Notes under the pieces: model-generated
Databases searched by the model: none
What the model was told of the DNA's origin: nothing
The model's input: only the letters and a program-made list of their open reading frames with translations
Made by a program: the position numbers and the translations under genes
DNA from: a virus
Lineage: Duplodnaviria > Heunggongvirae > Uroviricota > Caudoviricetes
Virus record (IMG/VR): IMGVR_UViG_2703718809_000006
Reading direction: 5' to 3' (one strand)
DNA: 59,084 nt
Part shown: in pieces, positions 52,163 through 59,072 of the stretch
Position numbering within the stretch: position 1 is the first letter of the stretch
How the letters are laid out: every line of letters starts with the position of its first letter

Positions 52163-53509
52163 CCCTGTTACGCCTTATCCAATGTGCCGCCCCCTACGCT
52201 CCTCATAGTGGGGATATAAGGCACAGTTTTCCTCCCGGCTATTTTTGCTTAAAATAGTGACATGAAACAACAGGTGTCATTCAAATTCCGGTTAAAACCA
52301 GATGGTCAACAGGAGTGTCAAATGAGGCGCTTTGCCGGAGCTTGTCGTTTCGTTTTCAACCGTGCTCTGGCGCTTCAGAATGAGAATCATGAGGCCGGTA
52401 AAAAATACATCCCTTACACGAAAATGGCTTCCTGGTTGGTTGAGTGGAAAAAAGACACTGAAACCGAATGGCTTATAGATTCTCCCTCACAGCCATTGCA
52501 ACAGTCACTGAAAGACCTTGAGCGGGCTTACAAAAACTTCTTCCAGAATCGGGCTGCTTTTCCCCGATTCAAAAAGCGGGGACAGAATGATGCATTTCGC
52601 TACCCGCAGGGCGTTAAGCTCGATCAGGAAAACAGCCGTATTTTTCTGCCGAAACTGGGCTGGATGCGCTACCGGAATAGCCGTCAGGTCACGGGAGTTG
52701 TGAAAAATGTCACTGTCAGCCAGTCCTGCGGTAAGTGGTACATCAGTATTCAGACAGAAAGTGAAATATCCACTCCGGTTCACCCTTCAGCATCAATGAT
52801 CGGGCTGGATGCTGGCGTGGCTAAACTCGCCACGCTGTCAGATGGCACAGTCTTTGAGCCTGTAAACAGTTTTCAGAAAAACCAGAAGAAGCTGGCGAGA
52901 CTTCAGCGACAGTTAAGCCGCAAGGTCAAATTCAGCAACAACTGGCAGAAGCAGAAACGCAAAATACAGCGACTGCATTTTCGTATCGCAAATATCCGCA
53001 GAGACTACCTTCATAAAGTCACAACGATCATCAGCAAAAACCACGCAATGATTGTCATTGAGGATTTGAAGGTTAAATACATGTCAAAGTCAGCGGCGGG
53101 AACGATAAGTCATCCGGGTCGCAATGTCCGGGCAAAATCAGGTTTAAACCGTTCGATACTGGATCAGGGCTGGTATGAAATGCGCCGCCAGCTTGAGTAC
53201 AAGCAGCTCTGGCGTGGCGGTCAGGTGCTTGCTGTTCCGCCAGCGTACACAAGCCAGCGTTGCGCGTGCTGTGGTCATACAGCGAAAGAAAATCGCCTGT
53301 CACAAAGTAAATTCAGATGCCAGGTATGTGGATATACAGCGAACGCCGATGTAAACGGCGCTCGTAACATTTTAGCGGCGGGGCACGCCGTACTTGCCTG
53401 TGGAGGGATGGTGCAGTCAGGCCGCCCGTTGAAGCAGGAACCCACCGAAATGATTCAGGCGACAGCCTGAACGTAGCAGGAATCCACGCCCCGAAGGGCG
53501 TGGAGGATG
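52163..53509 (+). mobile_element. IS200/IS605-family tnpB-only insertion element (IS1341-like)
   Basis: About 1.35 kb exactly filling the gap between the ddrA-like stop and the ddrB-like start; TnpB ORF plus 3' hairpin CCACGCCC-cgaa-GGGCGTGG. Confidence 0.7.
52262..53470 (+). CDS. tnpB: TnpB (OrfB) RNA-guided nuclease/transposase accessory protein
   Basis: 402 aa; RuvC-like 'GLDAGV' and 'MIVIEDLKV'; C-terminal zinc finger 'CACCGH...CQVCGY'; '[10 protein letters not shown]'. Confidence 0.85.
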
Positions 53510-53875
53510 TCACGCTGCCTCTTTAATGTTGGCGGCTATCCATGCCGCCGTGTGCTGTTTAACTTGGTCCAGGTCGATGTATGTGCCAACATATTGACTC
53601 AAGTCCTGTAACGTACCGATAAATGCATCAGTGCTCTGATCGACGAATTTATCAGCCAGGAAATCAGCAATCAGTTTTGGCACACCATCATGTTCCGAAG
53701 GTTGTTTTTCCTCGTCACTACTGCCGCCGGACACGCCGTACCCCATCTGTTGCATGATCTGGTCAATTTCATCGCTGATATCCAGCAACTCCATGCCACT
53801 CGCGGTAGCCGCTTTGGACATCAGAGCATCCAACTTATCGCTGAGATCCATTAACTCAATAGCTGATAGTGTCAT
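53510..53875 (-). CDS. Small acidic darA-operon protein (DdrA-like)
   Basis: 121-aa ORF directly downstream of darA. Confidence 0.45.
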   Translation of the reverse strand: MTLSAIELMDLSDKLDALMSKAATASGMELLDISDEIDQIMQQMGYGVSGGSSDEEKQPSEHDGVPKLIADFLADKFVDQSTDAFIGTLQDLSQYVGTYIDLDQVKQHTAAWIAANIKEAA

Positions 53876-56404: not shown

Positions 56405-56825
56405 CCTGTGCGAGATTTATTACGTAACTTCTGCGGATTTGCTGAGTAACAGGGAAAATCCGATACAACGGGTTAATGAACGAGTCGCCATGCGTAACCA
56501 TGACGTTGAAATGCCACAGTCGCTCTCCTTTACCCATATATTCAGTGGGTATGTACAACCATTCACTGTTTTCGCCCTGTTCAGCCGACGTCAAACAACG
56601 TTGTTCGCCTTCAATCACTGTCGTCGGCTTCTGAACATCGCGGATCCAATATCTGACCGTTGCGCCGCGCAAAAACGGGAATTTAGACCGGTATTTGAAC
56701 GGCACCCGGATGAAACCCGGTTTAATTTCCACATCACCAAGTTCTAAATGCGTGATGTCCTTGCGTTTTAGCAAATAGCGATCGGCTAAGGCTAACGCAA
56801 GAACGCATACACCCCAGCCAATCAT
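56382..56825 (-). CDS. lydB: LydB-like antiholin
   Basis: 147 aa downstream of the holin-like gene; size and order as in P1. Confidence 0.5.
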   Translation of the reverse strand: MIGWGVCVLALALADRYLLKRKDITHLELGDVEIKPGFIRVPFKYRSKFPFLRGATVRYWIRDVQKPTTVIEGEQRCLTSAEQGENSEWLYIPTEYMGKGERLWHFNVMVTHGDSFINPLYRIFPVTQQIRRSYVINLAQDVSDDEK

Positions 56826-57151
56826 TTCCCGCCTCCCTTTTTCACCAAACTTGTAAGAACATTCAGAATGCTATCGATATTCACTCGTTTCATCCCTGAA
56901 ATCACCTCATGACCGTTATTGCTGGCTATCGTTACCATTAAGTACGTAATTGATAACTCCCAGCCCTCGTGTTGCCCCAATAGGTACGCCACCGCGCCAG
57001 CTGTCACTGCAACAAAGATCTCCGTAACCAATCCCAACAAATTGCCAGACTGGCGACCGTCTCGGACATCCATCAGGAACGTGCCTATCCCACCAATTAC
57101 TGAAAGCAGGAGCGCAATAGCAACTGGAGCTAATTCCTGTGTGTCAAGCAC
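56822..57151 (-). CDS. lydA: LydA-like holin
   Basis: 109 aa with hydrophobic TM segments. Confidence 0.55.
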   Translation of the reverse strand: MLDTQELAPVAIALLLSVIGGIGTFLMDVRDGRQSGNLLGLVTEIFVAVTAGAVAYLLGQHEGWELSITYLMVTIASNNGHEVISGMKRVNIDSILNVLTSLVKKGGGK

Positions 57152-57225
57152 AAGTTCCCTCCTACGTTGTCAGGAGGTAATGGTATGCAAAGTAACTTCT
57201 CAACCGGTTATGTTGCATAAGAGAC

Positions 57226-57489
57226 TTACCTATTCAACCGACTTTTGGAACCTTCAATAATAAGCCTGCTATTGGCGCTGAAAATAAGAACCATGCAGCT
57301 CTGAAGGCTTTCATTCATGTCCTTATATTCCGCGAGATACATGCCAATAAAGCCAGCAAGTACGGCGGAAATACATTCGGCCAGCAATTTCTTGCATGAA
57401 GACTCGTAACGGTTTTCACATAGCCCACTCAAATACGAATACACCCCACCAAGAAGGGATAACATCACGATATGTACATAAAATGTCAT
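57226..57489 (-). CDS. Small membrane protein (holin-like, LydC-like)
   Basis: 87 aa with TM-like segments, upstream of lydA. Confidence 0.4.
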   Translation of the reverse strand: MTFYVHIVMLSLLGGVYSYLSGLCENRYESSCKKLLAECISAVLAGFIGMYLAEYKDMNESLQSCMVLIFSANSRLIIEGSKSRLNR

Positions 57490-57616
57490 TTTTTACCTAT
57501 ACAACAGTAAGTTGAACAACATTTGAGAACGGTATGCACTTTGTGATTTCCACACACACTGGTTTTGTTAATTAAAACCTGTAGCTTGCAATAAATAACG
57601 ATAGTGGGCAGAAAAT

Positions 57617-57793
57617 ATGCTAATAGGCTATGTACGCATATAGACAAATGAACAAAACACAGCTATGCAGTGAAAAGCACTTGAAAGCGCAGGATGTGAG
57701 CTAATTTTTGCGAATAAGGCGAGCAGCAAAAAAGCTGGGCACCCTGGGTTAAAAAAGGTTCTGCGTATGCTTTCCAGAGGTGATACCCTAGTC
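57617..57793 (+). pseudogene. Disrupted 5' fragment of a second serine invertase gene (Pin/Gin/Hin-like)
   Basis: Translates as MLIGYVRI*TNEQNTAMQ*KALESAGCELIF...GDTLV with two in-frame stops, ending at the palindrome CCCTAGTC-tcg-GACTAGGG. Confidence 0.6.
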
Positions 57794-57924
57794 TCGGACT
57801 AGGGACAACATTTCGAGAACAGTTTTCATTAGCGGTCAGCAGGCGCTAGATACATCGAATTGATGTGCCGCGCGATAAATGTACCTATTCTATCAAGATA
57901 AATTACACCGACGCGGCATTAGAA

Positions 57925-58497
57925 TTACAGCTCAGATTGAGTTTGGCGCTTCTCTACAGGATGATAACGATAAATCGTCGATACACCGATATCGTAAATA
58001 ATTGCCAACTGTTTCCTGCTGTAGCCATTTTCGATCAACCTCGCTATTTGCTCATGTTGTTCTTTTGTCAACTTCGGGCGACGTCCGCCAATGCGTCCCT
58101 GTTCGCGTGCAGCTGCCAGTCCGGCCAGTGTTCTCTCAACAATTAATTCACGTTCCATTTCTGCTAAAGCACCCATGACATGAAAAAAGAAACGCCCCAT
58201 GGGTGTTGATGTGTCAATACTGTCTGTCAGACTACGGAAATTAACACCTTTTTCCCGCAACTCCTCTATAAGCGTGATAAGGTGTTTCATACTTCTGCCA
58301 AGCCTATCCAGCTTCCAGACAACCAGCGTATCTCCTTCTGATAACGTTCTGAGCAGCTTTTTCAAGCCTGGTCTGGCTGACTTTGTTCCGCTTATTTTAT
58401 CTTCAAAAATCAGTTCACATCCTGCGCAGTTCAGTGCATTTCTTTGTAAATCTGTGTTTTGGTCATTTGTTGACACACGAATGTAGCCAATTTGCAT
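57925..58497 (-). CDS. cin: Cin DNA invertase (serine recombinase)
   Basis: MQIGYIRVSTNDQNTDLQRNAL...; resolvase catalytic domain plus C-terminal HTH; track ORF has 3 extra N-terminal codons. Confidence 0.85.
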   Translation of the reverse strand: MQIGYIRVSTNDQNTDLQRNALNCAGCELIFEDKISGTKSARPGLKKLLRTLSEGDTLVVWKLDRLGRSMKHLITLIEELREKGVNFRSLTDSIDTSTPMGRFFFHVMGALAEMERELIVERTLAGLAAAREQGRIGGRRPKLTKEQHEQIARLIENGYSRKQLAIIYDIGVSTIYRYHPVEKRQTQSEL

Positions 58498-58552
58498 GAA
58501 AAACAACCTCTTTGTTTAGTTAAAAATACATCGTTGGTATAGGTAGGGATTA

Positions 58553-58575
58553 AGACTAAAACGTTGGTTTGGGGG
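58553..58575. other. cix-like inversion crossover site
   Basis: ...CTAAACGTTGGTTTGGG... resembles the gix/hix/cix core (AAAACC..GGTTT) and lies at the 5' edge of the fibre segment. Confidence 0.5.
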
Positions 58576-59072
58576 AAGGCTCTGCACTGCCTGTTGGTGT
58601 GCCCGTTCCGTGGCCCTCAGCCACACCGCCAACGGGGTGGCTGAAATGTAACGGAGCAGCATTTTCTTCTGAAAAGTACCCAAATCTGGCAAAGGTTTAC
58701 CCAACGTTAAAATTACCTGATTTACGCGGTGAGTTTATCCGTGGTTGGGATGATTCGAGAGGGATTGATACAGGGCGTTCATTGCTAAGTGGTCAGACTG
58801 CAACATTTATTCGTACAGCTTTGCAGGATTATTACGGTTACGATCTGAATACTAATGTCAAAGTAGGTATCGCTTATGCTACTGCTGATTCTGTTATAAC
58901 TGTTGGAAACCCTGCTAATCCTAAAGCAGGAAATAATAGCGATTATGTTCCAGCATCATCAGATAACTCCATAACAGGCACTCAAAGGACGGCAGAGGAT
59001 AATTTTACCGGGGCATGGATATCAATGCGCCCCCGCAACGTTGCTTTTAATTACATTGTAAGGGCCACATAA
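58569..59072 (+). CDS. Tail-fibre variable C-terminal segment (Sv/Sv'-like, tail-collar fibre domain) inside the invertible region
   Basis: 'PWPSATPPTGWLKCNGAAFSSEKYPNLAKVYP...LPDLRGEFIRGWDD' is the conserved tail-fibre C-terminal module; no canonical start (promoterless segment). Confidence 0.6.
   Translation: MGEGSALPVGVPVPWPSATPPTGWLKCNGAAFSSEKYPNLAKVYPTLKLPDLRGEFIRGWDDSRGIDTGRSLLSGQTATFIRTALQDYYGYDLNTNVKVGIAYATADSVITVGNPANPKAGNNSDYVPASSDNSITGTQRTAEDNFTGAWISMRPRNVAFNYIVRAT

Follow-up and report, generated by a model that had tools for sequence, protein, structure and literature searches.

In P1, the lydC gene (− strand) and the DNA invertase gene cin (+ strand; AF234172, 31660-32220) are divergent, and cin is followed by the C segment, with the cixL site overlapping its 3' end. 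In D6, too, cin reads toward the C segment and its 3' end is overlapped by cixL. In the annotations of Mu and e14, the invertase gene (gin and pin, respectively) lies beside the invertible segment, reading away from it. A further system, Min, was described in plasmid p15B; Sandmeier et al. reportedly found in 1991 (Nucleic Acids Res 19:5831) a truncated 5' region of an invertase gene adjoining min, named psi-win or psi-cin, and the same group is said to have concluded in 1992 (J Bacteriol 174:3936) that Min arose when Pin-like DNA took the place of a Cin-like system. Our search of literature text gave no match for the name of this pseudogene. Among P1-like plasmids, truncated or reverse-oriented invertase genes have been reported in pSvP1, pTZ20_1P and pJIE250-3, including partial ORFs for an "N-catalytic domain of Cin" and a Min-like gene in reverse orientation that shares 98.5% identity with p15B Min, and a common "region of difference" was found to begin at cin (PMC6906374). 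Moreover, the inversion region of the plasmid MF510496 is 99% identical to p15B min (PMC5786510).

The window analysed here is a whole stretch of 59,084 nucleotides from a Caudoviricetes virus (IMG/VR record IMGVR_UViG_2703718809_000006), and its last 7 kb follow the P1 gene order, with darA, hdf, lydB, lydA and lydC all on the − strand. The lydC-like holin gene (57226-57489, −; Pfam Phage_holin_3_3, E 1.2e-9; annotated LydC in ON470617.2) is followed by a relic of the lydC-cin intergenic region (57490-57616, +), recognized by alignment to the annotated P1 record, and then by a truncated invertase gene, referred to below as psi-cin (57617-57793, +), which corresponds to the first 59 codons of cin (nt 1-177). 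Beyond lydC and psi-cin lie an intact invertase gene on the − strand and the tail-fibre gene segments. We propose, with a probability of roughly 0.88, that psi-cin is a non-functional relic of a resident P1-type cin gene, left behind when a Min cassette was substituted for the rest of the Cin system.

The conceptual translation of 57617-57793, MLIGYVRI*TNEQNTAMQ*KALESAGCELIFANKASSKKAGHPGLKKVLRMLSRGDTLV, had been noticed in a first-pass annotation of the sequence as an invertase N-terminus with two in-frame stops, and both points held. The similarity is far beyond chance: psi-cin matches the Resolvase N-terminal profile PF00239 with 37.1 bits, above the cut-off of 23.3 (E 4.3e-9), over positions 2-68 of its 145, an nhmmer search of the whole 59-kb window with a DNA model built from six invertase genes aligned model nt 1-177 to 57617-57793 (E 1.8e-38), and megablast to P1 returned 89.5% identity across 57528-57793 (E 3e-90). 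When the DNA-level alignment suggested in that annotation was carried out against cin, gin, pin and min, cin was clearly the best match, with an ungapped alignment to P1 cin nt 1-177 containing 20 differences (88.7% identity), compared with 68.8% for the first 177 nt of min, 66.1% for e14 pin and 63.3% for Mu gin. P1 homology already begins 5' of the ATG, at about 57503-57528, so that intergenic sequence between lydC and cin forms part of the relic. Judged from its sequence, psi-cin is the resident cin gene, placed and oriented beside lydC as in P1 and with its own upstream region, a reading that follows from the cin-best DNA identity and from the P1 homology running through the lydC-cin intergenic region; the proposal that the fragment was a second, incoming gene was consequently abandoned. 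In P1, too, the left neighbour of the gene is lydC. Compared with P1 cin, psi-cin shares the place beside lydC, the orientation and a homologous upstream region, but its truncation after codon 59 removes the larger part of the catalytic domain together with the HTH domain and cixL.

The invertase homology stops at 57793, which corresponds to nt 177 of the 573 nt of the model and is the last base of the left arm of a palindrome, CCCTAGTC-TCG-GACTAGGG (57786-57804, no strand assigned), detected by inverted-repeat search; the end of the similarity had been correctly placed at this palindrome. Neither tblastn, nor nhmmer, nor Smith-Waterman comparisons with shuffled controls revealed C-terminal invertase homology for psi-cin, which, with its two stops, offers no open frame holding a complete catalytic domain together with a C-terminal HTH_7 domain. 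Besides psi-cin and the intact gene (58497-57926), nhmmer found no significant invertase match in the whole window; neither there nor in locus L003 (12.4 kb, covering the whole Min region) did it reveal a further invertase fragment or a 3' part of cin.

The intact gene that converges on psi-cin (57925-58497, −) encodes a Min-type (Pin-like) serine DNA invertase of 190 aa with Resolvase (E 2e-51) and HTH_7 (E 3.4e-15) Pfam domains, 74.7% identical in amino acids to P1 Cin and 81.5% to e14 Pin, and an exact member of the UniRef cluster represented by Q05517_ECOLX ("DNA-invertase"). On this comparison of sequences it is a Pin-like Min invertase and not cin, as it had been called; since the fragment is closest to cin and the intact gene is the Pin-like Min, the two labels had been exchanged. 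The underlying idea of the first-pass annotation, that a pseudogene had arisen through recombination between two inversion systems, was nonetheless borne out, with a cin stub standing next to a Pin-like Min gene. In its layout min follows the Gin and Pin cassettes, with the invertase reading away from the segment and a crossover site upstream of the gene: min is directed away from the invertible tail-fibre region, toward psi-cin, the 3' sides of the two being about 130 nt apart. The Gin (Mu) and Pin (e14) cassettes have no second, dead invertase stub at their 3' side, and they serve as models for the neighbouring min, not for psi-cin. The first mix crossover site (58552-58577, treated as unstranded; − strand sequence TTCCCCCAAACC AA CGTTTTAGTCTT), located with a position weight matrix (PWM), borders the invertible region upstream of the min start and scores +17.1 bits with a PWM built from six sites of L003. 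A degenerate copy of the mix region with 75% identity (58520-58543 compared with 58550-58573) precedes the real mix site by 30 bp, in the stretch that separates the start codon of min from the invertible segment; either a crossover site that has decayed or a piece of the min promoter may be represented here. A separate observation concerns the record ON470617.2 (L002, phage vB_EcoM-813R1), where the annotation divides the min-type gene at 3436-4007 into two overlapping CDSs, "Hin1" and "Hin2"; this record therefore contains a frameshift or a sequencing error in the functional invertase.

The sequence behind the min stop codon (57858-57924, −) travels with min. About 60 nt of it (57858-57920, −) are weakly conserved behind the min-like invertase gene of a chromosomal, aroA-adjacent prophage remnant (L037, 1601-1660), and this min 3' flank folds into a long but imperfect hairpin (GCCGCG...CGCGGC), in which one change from T-A to C-G may be compensatory, and contains a weak terminator-like site at 57919-57905. 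It is this combination of conservation and hairpin that associates the flank with min, and the hairpin may serve min-type genes as a terminator or as a stabilising 3' element.

A relation to p15B could be established through the P1 GenBank record, which quotes four p15B (X62121) intervals as matching P1: 7728-8294 (lydA/B), 7483-7638 (lydC), 7147-7408 (P1 31570-31832, comprising the cin promoter and cin nt 1-173; 89% identity with one gap) and 6463-6533 (P1 31684-31754, the cin enhancer; 83% identical). A single offset, window + p15B = 64936, places all four on the corresponding window features, at 56642-57208, 57298-57453, 57528-57789 and 58403-58473, respectively. The last of these (−) corresponds to min nt 25-95 and locates the enhancer region of min itself. 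Because one offset fits lydA/B, lydC, psi-cin and the min enhancer, the window is laid out like the Min region of p15B; compared in this way, via the coordinates of the P1 record, p15B carries the fragment at the same position, with the same spacing and orientation and the same degree of identity to P1, and no difference was detectable. The plasmid MF510496, identical to the window over 57490-57925, adds to the link through its inversion region, reported as 99% identical to p15B min. Presumably, therefore, psi-cin is the psi-invertase gene of p15B. The stub is thus already known, from the p15B homology in the P1 record and, reportedly, from the 1991 description, and what is new here is comparative detail only, namely several truncation classes and a D6-type counterpart with a shared spacer.

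According to the proposed substitution, a Pin/Gin-style cassette, with min placed beside the invertible tail-fibre segments and reading away from them, would have replaced everything from cin nt 178 onward in an ancestor of the plasmid. The tail-fibre operon would have kept its orientation when this cassette replaced the Cin cassette, which would explain why min converges on the cin stub. The stub would have lost its function at the moment of truncation and would have drifted since. The joining event, in turn, would have left the 11-nt filler found at the junction, the last 8 nt of which would be an inverted copy of the adjacent cin sequence produced by fold-back or template-switch synthesis. 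The truncations reported in pSvP1, pTZ20_1P and pJIE250-3 are mostly IS-mediated and lineage-specific, whereas the one described here has a short filler of palindromic character at its junction and has become fixed across a large clade.

The coding sequence of psi-cin is visibly decayed. The first stop results from a TCA to TAG change in codon 9, that of the catalytic serine (57641-57643), and the second from a CGA to TGA change in codon 19, an arginine codon (57671-57673). Including these two, ten codons differ non-synonymously from P1 cin, and nine of the ten residues concerned (V8, S9, L17, R19, N20, E32, D33, G37 and R42) are identical across Cin, Min, Pin and Gin; given this invariance in four functional invertases, parsimony indicates that the nine replacements arose on the lineage of the stub. 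The pairwise pN/pS between psi-cin and P1 cin is 0.33 and not 1, a value whose path takes in the functional cin lineage as well. The substitution pattern and the damage to expression signals described below look like relaxed constraint, and psi-cin is probably without function, as far as can be judged from its sequence.

An alternative would be that the stub is not inert, either because it acts in cis together with the 53-nt spacer that follows the filler, or because both mark the left end of a mobile Min host-range cassette. We consider this improbable. Were the stub active in cis, it could take part in lydC control, in the insulation of convergent transcription or in Fis binding; were it the end of a mobile cassette, Min would have entered cin genes repeatedly and the palindromic filler would record the mechanism of joining. 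A related proposal, likewise improbable, is that a part of the stub continues to work in cis as a second Fis enhancer, as an antisense promoter directed into the min 3' end, or as a promoter or operator of lydC. Indeed, the stub spans the region annotated in P1 as the recombinational enhancer (cin nt 19-90; 57635-57706, +, mapped from P1 31678-31749). Enhancers were judged here by the presence of two Fis sites about 48 bp apart, and both sites are required for enhancer activity in the Hin and Gin systems. The predicted site-II-like 15-mer, GCGCAGGATGTGAGC (nt 71-85), is intact in psi-cin, but the predicted site-I-like 15-mer has changed from GTATCAACAAATGAA to ATATAGACAAATGAA, with the loss of G(-7); the 15-mer at nt 22-36 reads GT[A/G]TCAACAAATGAC in min, pin and gin, and its first G is gone in psi-cin. 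Moreover, the enhancer part has accumulated more substitutions per site (10 in 72 nt) than the rest of psi-cin (10 in 105 nt), and min owns an enhancer.

Expression signals give a similar picture. The -35 hexamer of the predicted P1cin promoter (TTTCCA, 57547-57552, by the P1 alignment) is kept, which would favour a residual promoter, but the -10 hexamer has lost its invariant T (TAAAAT to TAAAAC, 57573-57578), and a consensus scan found no sigma-70-like promoter on the + strand. The ribosome binding site of cin has changed from GAG to GGG (57606-57608), and the P2cin hexamers are not conserved upstream of psi-cin. A role in lydC regulation would draw on P7, in which a lydC operator for C1 is annotated 5-21 nt upstream of the cin ATG; such a control region would, however, explain the first tens of bases at most, and not 177 nt. 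The same proposal would be consistent with the retention of at least cin nt 1-53 in every truncated variant and with the presence of the stub in both P1-type and D6-type lineages, although the truncation classes number only five and the 53-nt minimum may be due to chance. An Rfam scan of 57150-58700 returned one sub-threshold chance match and nothing else.

The junction itself consists of an 8-bp inverted repeat with a 3-nt loop, the arms of which occupy 57786-57793 and 57797-57804. The left arm is cin nt 170-177, and the right arm lies within the 11-nt filler TCGGACTAGGG (57794-57804, unstranded), delimited by comparison with cin and with D6-type relatives; eight bases of the filler are the reverse complement of the eight cin bases that precede it, and the filler as such is homologous neither to cin nor to the D6-type relatives. 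As RNA, the palindrome would fold into a hairpin of -12.8 kcal/mol (z -3.4). The first-pass annotation had called the palindrome perfect, which is exact for the window; among 22 IMG/VR contigs that share the junction, an A57798G change breaks the DNA palindrome in 11. The haplotype with the ancestral states at 57523, 57733 and 57818 (polarised with P1 and with the D6-type loci L007 and L008) carries A at 57798, so that the perfect palindrome is probably ancestral and is now being lost. The two roles that the first-pass annotation had named for checking, recombination site and terminator, were both rejected. As an intrinsic terminator it would have the hairpin but no T run on either strand, and the terminator scan was negative. 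As a cix, mix or gix site it scores -8.1 bits with the mix PWM and -6.6 bits with a PWM of 17 sites, matrices for which nearly all of the pattern-selected sites used in building them score +15 to +27 bits.

These scores also bear on the possibility that an invertase made the junction at a quasi-cix site inside cin, with the palindrome as a hybrid crossover site, which we regard as very unlikely. Cin reportedly uses quasi-sites at low frequency, according to work of Iida and Hiestand-Nauer, which would speak for such an origin. Taking two 12-bp half-sites (consensus TTCTCCAAAACC) around a 2-bp core as the definition of a Din crossover site, cin nt 160-185 (AGAGGTGATACC CT GGTCGTATGGAA) rank eighth among 525 positions of P1 cin with the Din half-site PWM, and the outer bases of the palindrome (CCCTA...TAGGG) match those of a mix half-site. 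However, the cin segment scores -3.7 bits and the junction -6.6 to -8.1, far from the range of nearly all model sites, the inner motif AAACC/GGTTT is absent, and the spacing falls short by one base. The second junction, that of the D6 type at nt 308, scores -5.9 bits and ranks 11th of 523. That psi-cin is an inverted partial duplication of the adjacent invertase, or the 5' half of a single gene split by inversion, is hardly credible in spite of the two inverted copies facing each other with their 3' sides, since psi-cin is far closer to P1 cin than to min, its upstream region is that of P1 cin, min is complete and the absence of a cin 3' part from the window and the Min region argues for substitution or deletion. 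Under the favoured substitution, the palindrome is most likely, from its sequence, the scar of an illegitimate joining at the junction. Fold-back and template-switch events are known for quasi-palindromes, and a template switch would be a plausible reading of the 8-bp inverted copy.

The spacer that follows (57805-57857, no strand assigned) is shared at about 81% identity by D6-type plasmids, in which a longer cin stub precedes it. No invertase homology was detectable in it. A possible origin as decayed 3' cin was considered, as a "PRAIN" motif in the translation of 57794-57924 resembles by eye the GGRPRAIN of Hin, but the tests were unsupportive: tblastn, nhmmer --max and shuffled Smith-Waterman comparisons of 57794-57924 with invertases were negative, with one test of nine at p = 0.02. 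A 19-nt deletion between GTC repeats, by which cin would extend past 57793, was also discarded, as 8 of the first 12 bases match and then none, which is not significant. An origin of the spacer from e14-like chromosomal prophages was likewise set aside, as homology in the sampled chromosomal matches starts at the min stop codon or inside the gene (at 57921 or 57954). Finally, a direct repeat, ACAACATTTGAGAACGG at 57516 and ACAACATTTCGAGAACAG at 57805, was considered as the sign of a target duplication or of unequal crossing-over and was treated as chance; it is weaker in other haplotypes and absent from P1 and L007.

Positions 57490-57925 are 100% identical to several complete P1-like plasmids, among them MF510496 (pMCR_SCKP-LL83), and 147 complete plasmids in PLSDB hold at least 80% of this interval. 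Both stops, including TAG at codon 9, are present in all 22 sampled IMG/VR contigs that share the junction, and in three of these an additional invariant residue is altered (P43L or G44S). Among the same 22 contigs, stub and junction segregate as three linked haplotypes (57523, 57733, 57798 and 57818), which could serve as a lineage marker for p15B-type phage-plasmids. About 147 of 148 p15B-type right flanks come with the stub, and none among these approximately 148 showed a min cassette without it. There has been little time for loss of the stub, given that the plasmids are at least 98.6% identical.

Other stubs were located next to lydC or lydA with the six-gene nhmmer model, and cin was found to end at nt 53 in locus L012, at nt 177 in the window and in L002, L004 and L005, at nt 213 in L011, at nt 237 in L006 and at nt 307/308 in the D6-type loci L007 and L008. 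The stub of L006 (NZ_CP053046.1, an Escherichia fergusonii P1-like plasmid; 2629-3647) is an independent one, comprising cin nt 1-237 with a TAT to TAA stop of its own at codon 5, and in this plasmid unrelated DNA with a DapH/DapD/GlmU-type acetyltransferase gene replaces the inversion cassette. The backbone of L007 and L008 is of the D6 type and has no lydC, and a D6-type cin remnant has stayed in place there. Their stubs are 85% (L007) and 77% (L008) identical to D6, with the identity extending through the upstream region, and contain several stops and frameshifts. In both, the stub is followed by 17 unrelated nucleotides and then by the spacer of the window, with 81% identity from 57805 onward; beyond the spacer, L007 encodes a Min protein identical to that of the window. 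In L008 (CP042620.1, 3187-4400), an IS3-family element occupies the place of the invertase gene while the cin stub and the spacer remain, so that the tail-fibre switch has probably been lost. The shared spacer and Min would fit one substitution that was spread by homologous recombination and was followed by a nested deletion (nt 178 to about 330) later in the p15B lineage, and would fit equally two independent captures of one cassette. The D6-type stub with the shared spacer could likewise reflect retention or repeated acquisition.

The stub marks the left breakpoint at which P1-like phage-plasmids swap host-range (tail-fibre inversion) cassettes, and, on the proposed origin, it would show that the Min cassette displaced a Cin cassette and did not evolve from one. 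Its value is mainly for annotation and as an evolutionary marker, and no new mechanism is opened by it. In practical terms, about 150 sequenced plasmids, which include mcr-1 carriers such as pMCR_SCKP-LL83, have a 435-bp "intergenic" stretch separating lydC from the invertase gene that should be annotated as a cin pseudogene, and the adjoining invertase gene should be named min or pin-like, not cin. Elsewhere in the window, a TnpB-like ORF of the IS200/IS605 family (402 aa; 52262-53470, +), with HTH_OrfB_IS605, OrfB_IS605 and Cas12f1-like TNB Pfam domains, lies between a darB-like gene and a ddrA-like ORF (53510-53875); no gene is annotated there in MF510496, a plasmid that is otherwise identical.
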